Source: an uncultured Candidatus Saccharibacteria bacterium (GTDB lineage Bacteria > Patescibacteriota > WWE3 > UBA101185 > UBA10185). Taken from it: a stretch of 64,000 bases of DNA. The position numbers and the translations under genes were made by a program. Location of the stretch: positions 227,436 through 291,435 of the forward strand of contig CAYLVW010000001.1 of NCBI GenBank assembly GCA_964387275.1, given 5' to 3'. The notes beneath the pieces are model-generated. The model was given only the letters and a program-made list of their open reading frames with translations. It searched no databases and was not told where the DNA came from. This document shows, in pieces, positions 11,628-57,287 of this stretch (position 1 is the stretch's first letter; every line of letters starts with the position of its first letter).

Positions 11628-13031
11628 ATGAAAGTAAATAGAAACATTTTTCGTGAGTACGATATAAGAGGTATTTATGGGTCTGATCTGACCTTAGACC
11701 TAGCGTATCATGCCGGCAGGGCTTTTGGAACTGTCTTAAACTCTAAGTATATAAAGTCAGTAATTGTTGGGTACGATAATAGAGAAAGCTCTCCACTGAT
11801 AGCAGAAAAGCTAATAGATGGGTTAGTTACCTCGGGTATAAATGTGGTTAACACAGGTTTTGCGTTGACTCCTGAAATCGCATTTTTTACGTGCACTCAG
11901 GGTTTTGATTCGGGTATATCTGTAACAGCAAGTCATAATCCCAAAGAATTTAACGGGATTAAGTTTTACTTAAAAGATGCTGTGCCGTTTTTTGGATCCA
12001 GTTTGACTAAGCTTTCGGAACTTATGGAATTAGAGGATTATGTACTAGGTGAGGCTCGAAAAGTTAGTGTCGATTACGGAGACCAGTATATTGCAGAGTT
12101 CCTCTCCAGATTTAAATATAAAAAGAGTGTTAAAGTTGTTGTTTCCTCAAGAAATGGAACTCCTGGTAAATTTCTCAAACAAATATTTGATAACCTAGGC
12201 CATACTGTAACTGAACTAGATTGTGAGCTTGACCAGAATTTTCCAAAAGGTGCTCCAAACCCAGAGGATCCAATGTATCTTGCAGAGGTTTCAGCTAAGG
12301 TTTTAGAGAGCTCCTCTGATGTTGGCTTTGCTTTTGATACAGACGGGGATCGTGTGGCTGTTTGCGATGAAAAAGGTGTATTTTATGAAACAGATAAATT
12401 GCTAATGCTTCTTTCTACTTATCTGCTAAAGTCTACGCCTGGAGCAAAAATAATATATGATGTGAAATCCAGTGAAAATCTTAAAGAACTAATAGAAAAT
12501 TCTGGGGGAACTCCCAAGATGGTAAAGACTGGGCGTACAGTTTTTTCTGAAGAACTAAGAGGCGGCGCAATTCTTGGTGCTGAATACGCTGGTCACATTT
12601 TTTATGGCAAAGAGTTTTTTGGAATAGATGATGCAATATACACTTCATGCAAAGTTCTTGAAATACTAGATACGAGTGGGAAAAGCTTATCCGAACTGTT
12701 TTTTGATTATAAGAAAATGTATCATACTACCGAAATTAAAATTCCTTGTTCGGATTCCAATAAATTTGAGGTTATCCAGAAAGTAAAGAAATCTATTGTA
12801 TCTGATCCTTTATTTACAGATCACTTAGATATAGATGGGGCTAGGGCTTATTTGTCTGATAGGTCCTGGATGCTTGTGAGGGTATCAAATACATCACCTT
12901 ATCTTACTACTCGTATTGAAGCACTAACTGAGAGTAGTTTTAAAGTGTTAAAGGAAAAGCTAATTCAGATTCTTGCCCAGAATAATTTAGATACTGATTT
13001 ATTGGATAAAGTAAGGGTTATCTACTCTTGA
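11628..13031 (+). CDS. Phosphohexomutase (phosphoglucosamine mutase/phosphomannomutase family, GlmM/ManB-like)
   Basis: Active-site loop GISVTASHNPKEFNGIKF (phosphoserine), metal-binding FAFDTDGDRV, and a sugar-binding loop. Confidence 0.8.
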   Translation: MKVNRNIFREYDIRGIYGSDLTLDLAYHAGRAFGTVLNSKYIKSVIVGYDNRESSPLIAEKLIDGLVTSGINVVNTGFALTPEIAFFTCTQGFDSGISVTASHNPKEFNGIKFYLKDAVPFFGSSLTKLSELMELEDYVLGEARKVSVDYGDQYIAEFLSRFKYKKSVKVVVSSRNGTPGKFLKQIFDNLGHTVTELDCELDQNFPKGAPNPEDPMYLAEVSAKVLESSSDVGFAFDTDGDRVAVCDEKGVFYETDKLLMLLSTYLLKSTPGAKIIYDVKSSENLKELIENSGGTPKMVKTGRTVFSEELRGGAILGAEYAGHIFYGKEFFGIDDAIYTSCKVLEILDTSGKSLSELFFDYKKMYHTTEIKIPCSDSNKFEVIQKVKKSIVSDPLFTDHLDIDGARAYLSDRSWMLVRVSNTSPYLTTRIEALTESSFKVLKEKLIQILAQNNLDTDLLDKVRVIYS

Positions 13032-15371: not shown

Positions 15372-15405
15372 TTTTGTTGTTGTTTTTGGTTTAGTTTGAT
15401 GTTTT

Positions 15406-15432
15406 GGGCCGCCTGCATTCTGCAGGCGGCCC
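15406..15432 (+). terminator. GC-rich perfect hairpin downstream of ppsA (GGGCCGCCTGCA-TTC-TGCAGGCGGCCC); no U-tract
   Basis: A 12-bp perfect stem with a 3-nt loop lies 35 nt after the ppsA stop, in an AT-rich intergenic region. Confidence 0.5.
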
Positions 15433-15524
15433 CATCTCGCATACCTCTTTAATTACCTCCGTACACTCACTACCAAAATATTCTTCCGTTCCTCCTCTTT
15501 TGTCTTAAGTGCACATACTCTATA

Positions 15525-43567: not shown

Positions 43568-43589
43568 TTTAGTGTGTTGTTTTGGTTGT

Positions 43590-43644
43590 GAGGATTTAGT
43601 TTGGGGCGGGGCTGCTGTAAAACAGCAGCCCCGCCTAAATCCTC
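43590..43644 (+). terminator. Long GC-rich hairpin downstream of nrdJ (GAGGATTTAG[TTTGGG]GCGGGGCTGCTG-TAAAA-CAGCAGCCCCGCCTAAATCCTC)
   Basis: About 22 bp of stem with one 6-nt bulge, lying 23 nt after the nrdJ stop. There is no U-tract. Confidence 0.5.
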
Positions 43645-43689
43645 AGCCATAAATAAAAACTACATCCTACAAAAAACATGTAGTCCAAA

Positions 43690-50224: not shown

Positions 50225-50875
50225 TTAATTTAGTTCCAACAGATTACTAAATACCTCAGGAGTTAAAGCGTCACCATCTGTCATTTTCCGCCAATTTAAG
50301 ATATGTTTTCTTAGTTTTTCATTTAGTTTGGCCATTGCATCATCTTTATTTATTTGTAATTGTCTTGAGATTGTTGATTCTGCTGAAATACCTGTTACCA
50401 AATGTTTATAGAAAGCAGTTACTGCAAGTTTATTTACATTCTGACCACCGGGTCCCGAAGATTTACTTCTAACATCTAAACTTATGTTACCAAGTCCTAA
50501 TTCGTTGTAAGCAAGCCCCGATAGATCTTCCTCGTGTATATAGCTATTTATCCAAGAAACATATCTACCTATTCGTTTTTGATTTTCTATATGATTTTCT
50601 GTAACCGGAAATCTTGCTAAATCAGCAACAAGAGCTTTTTTAGTATCTGCCATTTGTTTTTCTTTGCTGTTTCTAAGCTGACTATCTTCTATAGCCTTTG
50701 TTGTTTTTGCTCCATGCTTTTTTGTTTTGCCGCCTCCCCCACCCCGCTTTTTTTCTAAACCTTCTTCGTAGTCTTCCCAAATATCATATATCTCTTCAAT
50801 TTCTTCTGGGCTTATTTTTGATGTATCCTCCTGATCTGGTTTTTCAGGATTTTGAGGTGTTGTAAATGTGGGCAT
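50225..50875 (-). CDS. RF-1 domain (GGQ) peptidyl-tRNA hydrolase-like protein with an N-terminal acidic and Gly/Lys-rich extension (ArfB/ICT1-like catalytic domain)
   Basis: ...SLDVRSKSSGPGGQNVNKLAVTAFYKHL... is a GGQ-motif RF-1 domain (PF00472) occupying the C-terminal ~115 aa. The N-terminal ~100 aa is EEIEEIYDIWEDYEEGLEKKRGGGGGKTKKHGAKTTK. Confidence 0.55.
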   Translation of the reverse strand: MPTFTTPQNPEKPDQEDTSKISPEEIEEIYDIWEDYEEGLEKKRGGGGGKTKKHGAKTTKAIEDSQLRNSKEKQMADTKKALVADLARFPVTENHIENQKRIGRYVSWINSYIHEEDLSGLAYNELGLGNISLDVRSKSSGPGGQNVNKLAVTAFYKHLVTGISAESTISRQLQINKDDAMAKLNEKLRKHILNWRKMTDGDALTPEVFSNLLELN

Positions 50876-50957
50876 GTTTTGATTTTAGCAGGTTACTCAT
50901 GGTAGTAAAACAATAGTGTTCATAGATGGTTTTGGATTTATGAGAAGGTAAAAAAAT

Positions 50958-51014
50958 CCGGACCACCACATTGAGTAAAACTACACTTTCGTGTGTCTCA
51001 ATGTGATGATCCGG
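50958..51014. repeat. Imperfect 18-bp inverted repeat (CCGGACCACCACATTGAG / CTCAATGTGATGATCCGG) with a 21-nt spacer at the 3' boundary of the GC-rich gene
   Basis: Read directly from the sequence: 16 of 18 positions are complementary. It may be a terminator or an island boundary. Confidence 0.4.
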
Positions 51015-51026
51015 TCTAGGTGTCAG

Positions 51027-51686
51027 TTAGTCGTTGCCGTATTCCTCCTGGAACTGCTTGGTTTGGGCAGCGCGGCGTCGGATTTCGTTCTGCTCTTGGC
51101 CGCTAAGCCGGTTCCATTTCCTTTCAGCACGTTCAGCCGAGCGACCGATTTTTCCGCCGAGCACCAATTTTGGTGCCGGAAGGTTCAAGGCGGATTCCAG
51201 ATCGGTCTTGGCCTGTTCGTGTCGTCGCTCTGCCTCCATGCGACTTTCGTGCATCTTGCCCTCGACCAGCCCGTAGATGATGCCGTGCATCGACTTGTTC
51301 ACCAGGTCTGGGGAGTCGGACGAGTTGTCGACGATCAGTTTTCTCGACGGCTCCGTAGACCATTTATACCCCTTGGTTTTCACGTCGGCGTCGACCCAGT
51401 CGCAGGTTGCTACCGCTAGGCGGATCATGTACGGCTTCAGCCGCCCGTTGAGGTTGCTGAGAGACTCACGGATCTTCTTGACCGTGACGCTGCTGAGGAT
51501 GCCGTTGTCCGTGGTCTTGAGGATCAGATCGAGCTCCCCCATGTCGAGGTTCGCCATCTCGGCAACCTTTTCAATGACTGCATTGCCTTCCTCGCCCCAA
51601 TCGGCGGCGAGAAGCATGCTAGCCGTGTCGATCACGGCCTGGAAGGCACCGATGAAACCGTTTGGCTTGCCATTCGTGTCCGTCAT
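51027..51686 (-). CDS. Hypothetical protein (219 aa) encoded by compositionally foreign DNA (about 57% GC, against about 36% for the flanks); probable horizontal acquisition
   Basis: Abrupt GC shift confined to about 50.99-51.72 kb. It contains one long ORF with a sensible composition (MTDTNGKPNGFIGAFQAVIDTASMLLAADWGEEGNAVIEKV...) and several GC-induced shadow ORFs on other frames. I do not recognise the product. Confidence 0.55.
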   Translation of the reverse strand: MTDTNGKPNGFIGAFQAVIDTASMLLAADWGEEGNAVIEKVAEMANLDMGELDLILKTTDNGILSSVTVKKIRESLSNLNGRLKPYMIRLAVATCDWVDADVKTKGYKWSTEPSRKLIVDNSSDSPDLVNKSMHGIIYGLVEGKMHESRMEAERRHEQAKTDLESALNLPAPKLVLGGKIGRSAERAERKWNRLSGQEQNEIRRRAAQTKQFQEEYGND

Positions 51687-52218
51687 GGTGTTAATCTCCT
51701 GTAACAGGTGTACCCCCTAGAAAAGGGATACGAAAAGAAAGGTTCCAATAAGACTTTTTAAACTGACTTATTTAGTTTTCAAATTTTGATAGCGCTTCTC
51801 CTTATACTGAATAAATGCCCAAATAAGAATACCAGAGACCTGGTTTGATGTTTTTAGTTGATATAACGGGAAAACAATCCTTATTTAGACATTTATCCTT
51901 GGTATTTCGCTGTAGCTAAGTAATTTGAGCTAAGCTAAAAGGAGGCTGTACTAATTGATACAAATACACTATAACACTATAGGTTCAAATCTGTCAAGTC
52001 TTTAGAAGCATTATTTATACTAGTGCAAAGTTAATGTTACTAGCTTATACACACATTAGGTGGGAAGAGGGCAGTGATATTAAGAGAAAGTACAAGTTAC
52101 TCATTGCAAGGAATTTGATAAGCTGACGCTTTGGTATAGTGATACTTATATAAATTTTTGATGTTAAAGTTTAATTATTTATCAGAAATTTTTTTGTGAA
52201 ATGTGATAAGATAATTTT

Positions 52219-53775: not shown

Positions 53776-54090
53776 ATGAAAACGAATGTGCCTCAGTGTA
53801 GCCTTGCCCAGTTTTTGGGAGCTATTTTTGGCATGATCGTATATTTCTATATTTTCTATCTTTTGTTGGGGTTGGCTGGAACTAATTATTTTGTTGTGGG
53901 AATCCTGTCACTTATTAGTGTGTTTGTGCTTTTAGGACAGGTGATTATAGGTATAGGGACAGTCTATGACGCAGGATCTACAGCAAGTACAAGCTTTGAG
54001 AGGTTTATGTGGGGAGTCACGGTGTTTAGTTTTAGTGCCTTTGTGTTTGTGGTTAAGGTAGTGTTTTTTGATTTTAACCCTAAGATATAA
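53776..54090 (+). CDS. Hypothetical small membrane protein (104 aa, 3 TM)
   Basis: Hydrophobic ORF preceded by an AAGGAGAA RBS and followed by an intrinsic terminator. Confidence 0.5.
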   Translation: MKTNVPQCSLAQFLGAIFGMIVYFYIFYLLLGLAGTNYFVVGILSLISVFVLLGQVIIGIGTVYDAGSTASTSFERFMWGVTVFSFSAFVFVVKVVFFDFNPKI

Positions 54091-54107
54091 TCTTAGAGTA
54101 AGTTATC

Positions 54108-54147
54108 GCCCTGAACTGTGCTTTTGGCCAGTATCAGGGCTTTTGTT
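54108..54147 (+). terminator. Rho-independent terminator (GCCCTGAACTG...CAGTATCAGGGC followed by TTTTGTT)
   Basis: GC-rich stem plus U-tract, 18 nt after the stop of the 53776..54090 ORF. Confidence 0.6.
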
Positions 54148-54267
54148 ATATACTTTAAATGAAGATTTCGTAGATTAATATCTTTACTAAATCTTTTTTA
54201 TTTCAGAAGAGTACTTAAAGCTTTTAGTTACAAGTTAGAATCAGATTCTTCTGCTGCATAAATATTT

Positions 54268-54600
54268 ATGAAAGAAGTTAAATTTTTAAATAAAGATGGT
54301 TTTACTTGTATAAATTGTGGGAAACATGTTTTGTATGAATCATTTGGTACGAAAAACAGAAATCATTGTCCCTATTGTCTTTGTTCTAAGCATGTTGATA
54401 TAACTATCGGAGACCGGAGTAATAAATGTGGTGGAGTTATGAGGTGTATTGGTAAACTATATAAGCCTGATGGAGAAGAGGTTCTTGTTCACAAATGTGA
54501 TAAGTGTGATTCTGTTCGTAAGAATAGAGTTGCTGGTGACGATGATTGGGATTTAGTTGGTTTGCTACCCGTGCTTGAGGCTGATGCTTTGATGTTTTAG
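54268..54600 (+). CDS. RNHCP-domain protein (Cys-rich zinc-ribbon-like, function unknown)
   Basis: Contains the eponymous ...TKNRNHCPYCLCSKH... motif plus additional CxxC pairs (CINCGKH, CDKCDS). Confidence 0.65.
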   Translation: MKEVKFLNKDGFTCINCGKHVLYESFGTKNRNHCPYCLCSKHVDITIGDRSNKCGGVMRCIGKLYKPDGEEVLVHKCDKCDSVRKNRVAGDDDWDLVGLLPVLEADALMF

Positions 54601-54673
54601 CATAGGCATTTGAAAATATTCATTTTTCAGAATTTTCTATCCTGTAGTATAATGTTGTCCGGAGGATGAGGAC

Positions 54674-55129
54674 ATGGAAGATTTTACCCGAGGGCTGTTC
54701 CTTTTTGTGGGCATTGTGTCTATTGTTGGTGTTATTGCTAATCTGTTCGATCTTACGAAACCAGTCAATAAAGGATCTTTTGGTATATTTAGTCTATTTA
54801 TTGTTACTATTGCCCAGGGTATAGAGTTTATTTGCAATACTATTGGGGTTTGGATTCTCACTGCAAGTGGGCTTTTTCCTTGGTGGGTTGGGGTTTTGTC
54901 TATCGCAGTTATTGTCACAATTATCGTATTTTTCCTAAGACCTTCTAACATCAAGAAGCTTAGTGAAATTGCTAAGGAAAGCGCTCAACATGCAAATGAG
55001 ATTCTTTCACAAGGATCTGCCAGTTACGATACAGGTAAAAAGACTTTTCATGAGATTTTGCTTAGTGTTATGGTTATCGTTTTGGAAGCGTCTATGGCTC
55101 TTATTGTTATGGGTATTATTAAGGTTTAG
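54674..55129 (+). CDS. Hypothetical membrane protein (151 aa, 4 TM)
   Basis: Hydrophobic ORF; unassigned. Confidence 0.45.
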   Translation: MEDFTRGLFLFVGIVSIVGVIANLFDLTKPVNKGSFGIFSLFIVTIAQGIEFICNTIGVWILTASGLFPWWVGVLSIAVIVTIIVFFLRPSNIKKLSEIAKESAQHANEILSQGSASYDTGKKTFHEILLSVMVIVLEASMALIVMGIIKV

Positions 55130-55157
55130 TCGTTTGAGGTTTGGTCTGGTTTGACTA

Positions 55158-55206
55158 GGGGCGGCCGGAAAAGCGCAACTTTGTTGCTGATTTTCCGCGC
55201 CGCCCC
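55158..55206. repeat. 49-nt GC-rich palindromic element, copy A (GGGGCGGCCGGAAAAGCGCAACTTTGTTGCTGATTTTCCGCGCCGCCCC), between convergent genes
   Basis: 47 of 49 positions are identical to copy B at 56704-56752. It can fold as a nested hairpin (GGGGCGGC/GCCGCCCC, CGGAAAA/TTTTCCG, GCAAC/GTTGC). Confidence 0.7.
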
Positions 55207-55211
55207 ATTAC

Positions 55212-55694
55212 TTATCTATTACCAAAAGTTGTAACAAAAAATGACATAAAATATCCCGTCAATATTGCGAGCTCTGTCCAAACAAACCTCTCTTCATCCC
55301 AAGCGTCCATATTACAGTATTCTTCCAGTGAGACTGATTTACCATTGCCTATATCTATATTATTAATATTAAGTGCTGTGTAGTAGTTTCTTTCTTGTAT
55401 TTTTGCAACACCAACATTGTATCTTTTTAGTCCGTAGTAAAGACCCAGTACTATATACACGATAAAAGCCCAAGCTACCCAGGTTTGTAAACTTCCAAGT
55501 AGAACACTAGCAATTATGCACGCACTAGACGCTATTATAAGTAGCGTGATCCAAAAAGATAGAGTAAAAAGTGCTCTTCTATTAAGATGCTTTATCTTCG
55601 GTATGTACATACAAAGCCCTAGATAAATTATAAGTGCTGCGCCGATCACTCCATTTAGAAGTGTGATTGCTCCAATGAGCATCTGTGTAGTCAT
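55212..55694 (-). CDS. Hypothetical membrane protein (160 aa, 4 TM)
   Basis: Hydrophobic ORF; unassigned. Confidence 0.45.
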   Translation of the reverse strand: MTTQMLIGAITLLNGVIGAALIIYLGLCMYIPKIKHLNRRALFTLSFWITLLIIASSACIIASVLLGSLQTWVAWAFIVYIVLGLYYGLKRYNVGVAKIQERNYYTALNINNIDIGNGKSVSLEEYCNMDAWDEERFVWTELAILTGYFMSFFVTTFGNR

Positions 55695-56110
55695 TAGTTA
55701 AGCATCAAGGTAAGAACAATCAACGGTATAGATATAAACACACCCAAATAATCTCTAGTCTCACTATTTTGAGTAGTATCATTCCAATTTACATCTTGCT
55801 CTGATTTAAGCGCCTGGTGTATTTTTCTTCCTACTATATTTTCCACCATAAATGCCAGATCATATACTATAAAGTAACTGTAAATCAAAATATAAGGTAT
55901 ACCTATAATTGCATGTACCTTACTTTGAATAAACCACATATTGTAGGCAATTATTATTACCCCAAGCGATCTAAGTAGTCTTACAAAGAAGGCGATACTT
56001 AAATCTCGTACTTTGAGTATTGCGTAGGGCTTAGTTGAATCGAAAGTGCCTGTCATTATGGAACTAAGGCATAGTACTAGCAATCCTACCGTAAGAACTG
56101 AGATCTCCAT
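55694..56110 (-). CDS. Hypothetical membrane protein (about 138 aa)
   Basis: Hydrophobic ORF. The start is placed at the internal MEISVLTVGLLVL; the ORF track extends to 56155. Confidence 0.4.
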   Translation of the reverse strand: MEISVLTVGLLVLCLSSIMTGTFDSTKPYAILKVRDLSIAFFVRLLRSLGVIIIAYNMWFIQSKVHAIIGIPYILIYSYFIVYDLAFMVENIVGRKIHQALKSEQDVNWNDTTQNSETRDYLGVFISIPLIVLTLMLN

Positions 56111-56215
56111 TTTCTTCCCCTTTACTAGGGGGATTGTACAACAGTTTATACCCAATAACCATAGAATTTGCAGTATCCTGCTTGGTGTTGTAAGATCTTC
56201 CAGAAAGGAAGGAAA

Positions 56216-56668
56216 ATGGACCCTAAGTGGCTCGTTTTGACTTATTTTGTTACTTTCTCATTTTTTGCGCTTAATATGGTTTTTAATCTAACAGAGCGTG
56301 TGGTGCGAGGAAGGGGTAGGTTTACTTATGTTTTGGGATCTATCGCCCTGGCGATAATGGCTAGTGCCTCTTTTTTTATTTTCACATCAAACGTGGAAAG
56401 TGCCTATACAGGTGGTATTTTGTACCCTAATGCTATTGTAGTTCTTTTGTCGGCTTACTTGCTCATTTATTCAGGTGTACATTTGTTGGCTAGTTTTCTC
56501 GATAGAGCCATTAAGGTTTACTATGCTTTTTCCTATAGTAGGGTCCCTTCGGAAACTAATAAATTGACTGCTACACAAGAGTTTTTGCCTTTTTGGCCTA
56601 TTACTGGGATTCCTGATATGGTTATGATTTTATGTTTTATTTTTATGCTTGTTATTTACTGGGTTTAA
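56216..56668 (+). CDS. Hypothetical membrane protein (about 150 aa, 4 TM)
   Basis: Hydrophobic ORF. The start is placed at MDPKWLVLTYF; the ORF track starts at 56168. Confidence 0.4.
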   Translation: MDPKWLVLTYFVTFSFFALNMVFNLTERVVRGRGRFTYVLGSIALAIMASASFFIFTSNVESAYTGGILYPNAIVVLLSAYLLIYSGVHLLASFLDRAIKVYYAFSYSRVPSETNKLTATQEFLPFWPITGIPDMVMILCFIFMLVIYWV

Positions 56669-56703
56669 TTATTAGTTAGTTGTTTAGGATTTAGATATGT
56701 TAC

Positions 56704-56752
56704 GGGGCGGCCGGAAAAGCGCAACTTCGTTGCTGATTTTCCGAGCCGCCCC
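56704..56752. repeat. 49-nt GC-rich palindromic element, copy B (GGGGCGGCCGGAAAAGCGCAACTTCGTTGCTGATTTTCCGAGCCGCCCC)
   Basis: Near-identical to copy A; again between convergent membrane-protein genes. Confidence 0.7.
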
Positions 56753-56786
56753 TAATTTCTTATACAGATAAAACCCTAAATAGTAT

Positions 56787-57287
56787 TTAAACTAATCTTG
56801 ATATAACCAGAGCATAAATATAAAAACCAGCTACATAGAATAAAACAAGGAAACTAACCCCAGTCACAATAACTTTATTAGTTAATATACTCTTATCACC
56901 AAGTTCTTGGATTTTCACCAAGATTTCTTGATTACCTGTATCACTTACAAAACTTTCTAGTAGTTTATGGCGTTCTTGTAAATAATTAAGCCCGTCACTT
57001 ATGTTATAGATATAAATACTAATAAACAGAAGCAACGGTAGAAGCGCCCAGAAAACTGACAGTTTTGAAAGACCTGCCCCATACCTCATAACTATAAACA
57101 TAAATAATAGGCTTAAAGATGCATTTATAGGTATTTGAAGAAGATCCATTGCATTAACATCTTTAATTTTCTTTTTAGTGCAATAGTTCCAGACAAAGTC
57201 TACATTTATGATGGAAGCGTAGAGACATAAAGCCATGCCAACCAAGATAATTACTAGTGACATCGGATTTTCTATATATACTGTCAT
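56787..57287 (-). CDS. Hypothetical membrane protein (166 aa, 4-5 TM)
   Basis: Hydrophobic ORF; unassigned. Confidence 0.45.
   Translation of the reverse strand: MTVYIENPMSLVIILVGMALCLYASIINVDFVWNYCTKKKIKDVNAMDLLQIPINASLSLLFMFIVMRYGAGLSKLSVFWALLPLLLFISIYIYNISDGLNYLQERHKLLESFVSDTGNQEILVKIQELGDKSILTNKVIVTGVSFLVLFYVAGFYIYALVISRLV

Follow-up and report, generated by a model that had tools for sequence, protein, structure and literature searches.

Sites of the attC type are framed by outer boxes, R''(RYYYAAC)...R'(GTTRRRY), span 57-141 nt, occur with an integrase or an array nearby and owe their strand polarity to extrahelical bases. Among short extragenic palindromes, an unpaired GTAG or CGTC tetranucleotide at one end is a criterion for repetitive extragenic palindromic (REP) elements (PMC3733652), and REP hairpins in 3' untranslated regions have been described as combined terminators and stabilisers (bioRxiv 10.64898/2026.03.23.713779). 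Terminators located between convergent genes were reported to be more constrained than unidirectional ones in Bacillus cereus (PMC5381666). Here we describe a 49-nt palindrome, element E, found in two copies (E1 and E2, 1.5 kb apart) in a 64-kb stretch of the genome of an uncultured WWE3 bacterium; this whole stretch is referred to as the window. E is a genuine, selected, lineage-specific hairpin and not an artefact. Judged from the sequence, we give about an even chance to the reading that it is a selectively maintained hairpin at the 3' ends of two convergent units, acting as a bidirectional terminator or as a 3'-end protector.

The 49-mer GGGGCGGCCGGAAAAGCGCAACTT(T/C)GTTGCTGATTTTCCG(C/A)GCCGCCCC had exactly two matches in the window, both on the + strand (coordinates in Table 1), and none in 100 dinucleotide-preserving shuffles. 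The copies agree at 47 of 49 positions (96%) and form the second-longest direct repeat of the window. Their two differences lie at element positions 25 (T/C; 55182/56728) and 41 (C/A; 55198/56744), which in the predicted fold are the third base of the triloop and the single bulged base. No similarity was detected between the 60 nt on either side of E1 and those around E2, the borders reading cta/GGGG...CCCC/att and tac/GGGG...CCCC/taa, respectively. On either strand each copy is predicted to fold into a nested, 20-bp interrupted hairpin of -33.7 kcal/mol (z about -6 versus shuffles), a GC-rich unit within a window of 36% GC. A first-pass annotation, made from the letters of the window, had described two near-identical 49-nt elements, each discrete with unrelated flanks and folding into a nested hairpin, and all of this was confirmed, coordinates and identity included. 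Rfam gave no match to E at the gathering threshold, the tRNA-Val being the sole family found in the window, and the best Rfam matches near E were chance matches to miRNA hairpins with E-values of 4-9.

Named homologues of the LytR_C protein encoded nearby assign the organism to candidate division WWE3 within the Patescibacteria. Relatives with which to compare the locus are scarce, a search with ribosomal protein L21 (rplU) having retrieved proteins at 79%, 70%, 51% and 42% identity only. Three sequences stand for the sister species, L079 (JGI), L091 (ENA), which is identical to it, and L095 (NCBI metagenome), L079 and L095 being 89.8% identical overall at the nucleotide level. The genes of this species are ordered LytR_C - 113 aa - RNHCP - A'(+) - B'(-) - rplU; RNHCP and rplU thus enclose one convergent pair, A'-E-B', as against five genes (A, X, Y, Z and B) in the window. 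The 146-aa gene A' of L079 and L095 is orthologous to gene A, which precedes E1 (E-value 8e-8; Smith-Waterman z 13.6), while gene X is absent from the sister species. The gap between A' and B' carries a single copy of E, GGGCGGCGCGGAAAATCTTTTTTGCATTCTGCAAGATTTTCCGGCCGCCC, of which E1 is the positional orthologue, both lying after the gene A orthologue. The L079 copy retains both the 8-bp and the 7-bp stem of the window element, and two of its arms, one of 17 nt and one of 14 nt, match the window letter for letter. Its bulge is on the opposite arm, hence E is flipped relative to gene A in the sister species. Furthermore, its structure is kept while its sequence is changed at the apex, where the inner module is swapped for a different self-complementary one and the predicted energy is again -33.7 kcal/mol. 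The stability z-scores of the E1, E2 and L079 versions range from -6 to -8.

This persistence was set against the divergence around it. In conserved genes, the DNA of the window and that of L079 agree at about 73% of positions, and along a 7-kb stretch shared by the two the only non-coding matches are E, the sequence immediately upstream of rplU and the region of the tRNA-Val. None of the 50 positions of E differs between L079 and L095, while the remainder of the spacer that holds it differs at 24 of 97 (Fisher p = 2.4e-5), which implies that E is under purifying selection, unpaired bases included. The sequence conservation that the first-pass annotation read from the two copies is thus real and extends to the sister species. 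For comparison, the terminator after the orthologous 104/113-aa gene is an unrelated sequence in the window versus the sister species, and the organism of L080 and L099 has an unrelated hairpin in place of the one that follows the pyruvate phosphate dikinase (PPDK) gene in the window. Variation of E among copies and strains is confined to its loop or bulge.

Beyond the sister species the element fades. L080 (70% L21 identity) has a single small gene in the interval and a hairpin, GGGCGGA...TCCGCCC, over its stop codon, followed by TTATTTATTT. This hairpin may be a simpler ancestral form of E; it went unrecognised by a covariance model derived from the two stems that are conserved in E. In WWE3 relatives at about 45% LytR_C identity no E-like element was found in the interval.

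Both copies lie in gaps between convergent genes, E1 between A and X and E2 between Z and B, as the first-pass annotation had stated and as independent gene calls agree (Table 1). The same annotation placed a membrane-protein gene pair between the copies, where there are in fact three genes, X and Y on the minus strand and Z on the plus strand. The distance from E to the four stop codons of A, X, Z and B is 5-35 nt.

Table 1. Parts of element E and features of the surrounding locus, with positions in the window.
Feature	Position	Strand	Description
Outer stem of E			8 bp, G/C only; GGGGCGGC/GCCGCCCC
Bulge of E1 and E2			one base, 3' arm
Middle A/T-tract stem of E			7 bp; CGGAAAA/TTTTCCG
Internal loop of E			2x3
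Apical stem of E1 and E2			5 bp; GCAAC/GTTGC, triloop
E1	55158-55206	+	outer stem 55158-55165/55199-55206; bulge 55198
E1 middle stem	55166-55172/55191-55197		internal loop 55173-55174 and 55188-55190
E1 inner stem	55175-55179/55183-55187		triloop 55180-55182
E2	56704-56752	+	architecture of E1; only 56728 (C, loop) and 56744 (A, bulge) differ
Gene A	54674-55129	+	151-aa membrane protein, no family match; ends 28 nt before E1
Gene X	55212-55694	-	160-aa ORFan membrane protein; stop codon 5 nt from E1
Gene Y	55694-56110	-	138-aa ORFan membrane protein; upstream of X, co-directional
Y/Z spacer	56111-56215		between divergent genes; divergent promoter region of the X-Y-Z block, presumed from the gene layout only
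Gene Z	56216-56668	+	150-aa ORFan membrane protein; ends 35 nt before E2
Gene B	56787-57287	-	166-aa ORFan membrane protein; stop codon 34 nt after E2; divergent from rplU (L21)

In the mechanism that we propose, E, transcribed from either strand, would fold to about -34 kcal/mol and would end or insulate both convergent transcripts, either through transcription termination or as a barrier to 3'-to-5' decay and to read-through into the opposing gene. The element is what one looks for in a terminator, namely a stable GC-rich stem-loop directly downstream of stop codons in convergent gaps, and all three of its independent contexts (A and X, Z and B, A' and B') are such gaps. Use on both strands could also account for stems frozen in sequence, because a G-U pair in the transcript of one strand corresponds to C-A, a mismatch, in that of the other, so that G-U intermediates would not be tolerated in one DNA segment that must fold on both.

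Several observations weigh against this reading. On neither strand does a U-tract follow the full hairpin, its tails being ATTACTTATC, TAATTTCTTA, TAGTCAAACC and GTAACATATC, and only the nested 5-bp inner hairpin has T runs after it (TGATTTT on one strand, GCTTTT on the other). Canonical terminators with a hairpin and a T-tail are present in relatives, hence E is not the standard terminator form here. The tail is T-richer on the strand that has the bulge in the 3' arm, which is a weak trend across three independent sites. In addition, unpaired bases are conserved between L079 and L095 beyond what stability alone requires; the cross-species comparison of E covers two independent lineages whose inner modules cannot be aligned column by column; and BLASTP, Smith-Waterman z-scores and a hidden Markov model of the A family showed no paralogy among the flanking genes. 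The first-pass proposal of a bidirectional terminator therefore fits in the position of E between convergent genes and does not fit in the missing U-tract, and the function at the RNA level is deduced. Given the lack of a U-tract after the whole hairpin, together with the T-tailed terminators of relatives, E may act mainly as a 3'-end protector or insulator.

Hairpins of this kind are not restricted to E in the window. A sliding-window fold of the 64 kb gave four outstanding hairpins, E1, E2 and those at 43588-43647 and 15406-15432. The hairpin at 43588-43647 (-42.7 kcal/mol) lies just after the gene of the class II ribonucleotide reductase (RNR) and has a 15-bp perfect stem within a longer palindrome, GAGGATTTAG...CTAAATCCTC; that at 15406-15432 (window 15388-15447) lies directly after the PPDK gene and has a 12-bp perfect stem. 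Neither is followed by a U-tract. With these two beside E1 and E2, very stable G/C-clamped hairpins appear as a 3'-end feature of this genome. The first-pass annotation had listed GC-rich hairpins at 15406-15432 and 43590-43644 as sequences different from E, and both exist and do differ from it.

Some further details of these regions were recorded. The 11-mer TGCATTCTGCA (stem TGCA, loop TTC) occupies the apex of the PPDK hairpin (15414-15424) and also the apex of E in L079 (2642-2652), which could be a coincidence, a sign that this apical motif is favoured, or the result of hairpins exchanging their apical modules. Contig L099, from the organism of L080, has an extra 164-aa open reading frame (ORF) on the opposite strand between PPDK and enolase (12337-12831), not a membrane protein by eye, where the window has the hairpin only and no such ORF. 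At 50900-51700 the window has a high-GC patch (0.42 versus 0.35, 2-kb bins) with many strong predicted structures, which overlaps an ORF at 51027-51686 (minus strand) with no family match, beside an ORF with an RF-1 domain at 50225-50875 (minus strand). At the same place L095 has the RF-1 gene and then an unannotated gene with GC-rich runs.

The conservation of E is open to another explanation, that it acts at the DNA level or as a protein-recognition site, as a cruciform or as a palindrome bound by a lineage-specific DNA- or RNA-binding protein, with any effects on transcript ends secondary. Its 17-nt and 14-nt arms are identical in sequence across about 73% genome identity, and L079 and L095 agree in the loop and the bulge, in both cases beyond the needs of pairing. 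However, the apex is swapped freely from one species to the next, and the asymmetric features change their orientation. Beside E there is no gene for a candidate binding protein, and bidirectional use already explains why the stems are frozen. We consider a recognition site very unlikely.

The first-pass annotation also suggested that E belongs to a dispersed family resembling REPs or miniature inverted-repeat transposable elements (MITEs). In that case E would be a mobile hairpin that inserts near gene ends in either orientation, its transposase being encoded elsewhere in the genome. Much about E is in keeping with such an origin: it is a discrete 49-nt unit whose identity ends at the stem base between unrelated flanks, it is GC-rich in a genome of 36% GC, its asymmetric features are flipped versus the orthologous gene in the sister species, and it is extragenic and located between convergent genes like many REPs. 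The copy number, though, is low, with only two copies, 1.5 kb apart, in the 64 kb of the window and a further 1.7 kb of this genome, the latter being Logan contig L101, which is 100% identical to the window, extends beyond its right end and contains no new copy. The covariance model, run over 177 kb of clade DNA, found at E <= 10 nothing other than E1, E2 and the sister-species copy, no diverged copies included, and did not match the two other strong hairpins of the window. Stems-only degenerate patterns, scanned over viral contigs, GTDB representative genomes (74 loci) and metagenome contigs (eight loci), gave no member of an E family, every hit being an unrelated palindrome, mostly from high-GC organisms and including an Azospirillum repeat. 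The absence from the metagenome collection is weak evidence, since the JGI contig of L079 was likewise not returned there. Comparison by blastn of the 1.66-kb unit with plasmids and phages gave no match. The GTAG/CGTC tag is absent at both copies, neither is flanked by a direct repeat or target-site duplication, and at 49 nt E exceeds the 14-40 nt typical of E. coli REPs. Moreover, no transposase, REP-associated tyrosine transposase (RAYT), integrase or recombinase was found among window ORFs of at least 150 aa, and the sister copy sits at an orthologous site, which fits vertical inheritance. The claim of a dispersed family was thus not upheld, and mobility of this type is, in our view, unlikely, bearing in mind that about 66 kb of the genome was inspected and that a sparse family, with at most a few dozen copies per Mb, may be compatible with this.

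One further palindrome was seen outside the clade. At 2829-2868 of L089, a 462-kb metagenome contig with about 43% local GC and several other G/C-clamped hairpins, there is a perfect palindrome, GCGGCCGGAAAATCG...CGATTTTCCGGCCGC, with 16 nt in common with an E arm; it is probably unrelated to E.

The gene content around E bears on the origin of its second copy. The window is core chromosome, holding the dcw cluster with FtsA/FtsZ, class II RNR, IleRS, UvrABC and LexA as well as PPDK, enolase, rplU-rpmA, signal peptidase and tRNA-Val. The interval from RNHCP to rplU is a variable hotspot (window 53776-57287; L079 1331-3195; L080 7838-8320; L096 11714-13567), with one small membrane gene in L080, two in L079 and L095 and five in the window, and with an ABC transporter gene in a more distant WWE3 relative. 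None of A, X, Y, Z and B matched a Pfam, NCBIfam or PHROGs family. Gene B found only itself among 5.8 billion sequences, and gene X itself and two weak partial matches among 1.84 billion representatives. These proteins and the small proteins of the relatives are built alike, with three transmembrane segments, then a hydrophilic stretch of 25-45 aa and a fourth transmembrane segment, and mutual sequence similarity of the small membrane proteins of the interval is undetectable except for the orthologous pair A/A'. When A, X, Y, Z and B were compared with the proteins of relatives, only A/A' (79_146) and w104/79_113 proved related.

In the history that we favour, the ancestor would have had a single hairpin, located after gene A as it is in the sister species, and the variable interval would have gained, in the window lineage, the self-contained X-Y-Z block together with a second hairpin copy, so that all four transcription units end at an E. 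Such a lineage-specific gain of X-Y-Z with an E copy is the simplest account, its direction being deduced; the data are equally compatible with E1 and E2 having recombined in the sister lineage, with loss of X-Y-Z. The identity of the 49-nt copies stops exactly at the stem base and the flanking genes are unrelated, hence a simple segmental duplication does not explain the second copy. Local tandem duplication including the flanks, the explanation that the first-pass annotation had set against a dispersed family, fails on the same unrelated flanks and lack of gene paralogy. Duplication of a gene-E-gene module was also considered and rejected, as A and Z, and likewise X and B, are dissimilar while the orthologues A and A' are still similar.

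Selection and occasional gene conversion would have kept E1 and E2 alike. In the 99.4% identical strain of SRR31850040, the E2 loop reads TTT, the E1 state (L078), and the E1 bulge is A, the E2 state. Both strain differences are swaps to the state of the paralogue, so these two events give a hint, at the sequence level, of conversion between the copies. A Logan contig of the 99.4% identical strain, L102, ends inside E1 (1159-1188; window 55182-55206), consistent with assembler collapse at the repeated 49-mer.

The block between the copies raises the possibility that E is an attC-like site for site-specific recombination, with a circular X-Y-Z cassette bearing one E integrated at a chromosomal E and the interval serving as a cassette hotspot. 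The direct repeats do coincide exactly with the edges of the 1.5-kb block that the sister species lacks, with identity limited to the hairpin; the block genes are ORFans; the interval holds one, two or five small membrane genes, or an ABC transporter, across WWE3 relatives; and the asymmetric bulge resembles the extrahelical bases of attC. Nevertheless, no recombinase was found in the 64-kb window, E ends in GGGGCGGC/GCCGCCCC without RYYYAAC/GTTRRRY boxes and falls below the 57-141 nt of known attC sites, and only two sites are present in the DNA inspected. Furthermore, X-Y-Z is in mixed orientation with its own putative divergent promoter region, and the same picture would arise if the sister lineage had lost the block through recombination of E1 with E2. 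We regard an attC-like site as decidedly unlikely, and it is a long shot that E is the recombination site of an undescribed, cassette-type mode of gene gain in WWE3, by which small blocks of ORFan membrane-protein genes would enter and leave the chromosomal hotspot through recombination at an asymmetric, conserved hairpin resembling a terminator. If true, cassette-type gain would explain the direct repeats, the exact boundaries, the orientation flip and the exchange of variants between the copies.

To return to the 3'-end reading, E offers a concrete, conserved structure for studying transcription end or mRNA protection in WWE3, a member of the Candidate Phyla Radiation (CPR), bacteria with tiny genomes whose non-coding signals are almost unstudied. 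If E is only a bidirectional terminator, it is an ordinary, though unusually well-conserved, example. The copies mark the edges of a probable recent gain of ORFan membrane genes in a variable interval, and population reads could show whether such hairpins serve as junctions of gene gain. Hairpin repeats such as E also fragment short-read assemblies of this lineage.

Among known systems, yeast mitochondrial GC clusters (PMC4478555) are likewise GC-rich palindromic hairpins in an AT-rich genome, but those are abundant, demonstrably mobile and eukaryotic-organellar, whereas E is low-copy and syntenic between species. With the REPs of Proteobacteria E shares the form of an extragenic imperfect palindrome with a bulge, often found at 3' ends or in convergent gaps and discrete between unrelated flanks; REPs, in contrast, occur in tens to hundreds of copies, are tagged and measure 14-40 nt in E. 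coli, and GTAG-type REPs often go together with genes for RAYT transposases, none of which was found among the window ORFs of at least 150 aa. The attC sites and Vibrio cholerae repeats are also imperfect palindromes with extrahelical bases that form direct repeats bounding small cassettes of unknown function, yet E is shorter, is present as two sites and has neither the R''/R' core motifs nor an integrase. Bidirectional intrinsic terminators differ from E in that its A/T runs are internal and mutually paired (CGGAAAA/TTTTCCG) inside an 8-bp G/C clamp, and in that only a weak 5-bp apical hairpin precedes a T run in E. With these terminators E nevertheless has in common a single GC-rich stem-loop in a convergent gap, A/T runs symmetrical around the hairpin and a conservation above that of ordinary terminators, comparable to the one reported for Bacillus cereus (PMC5381666).

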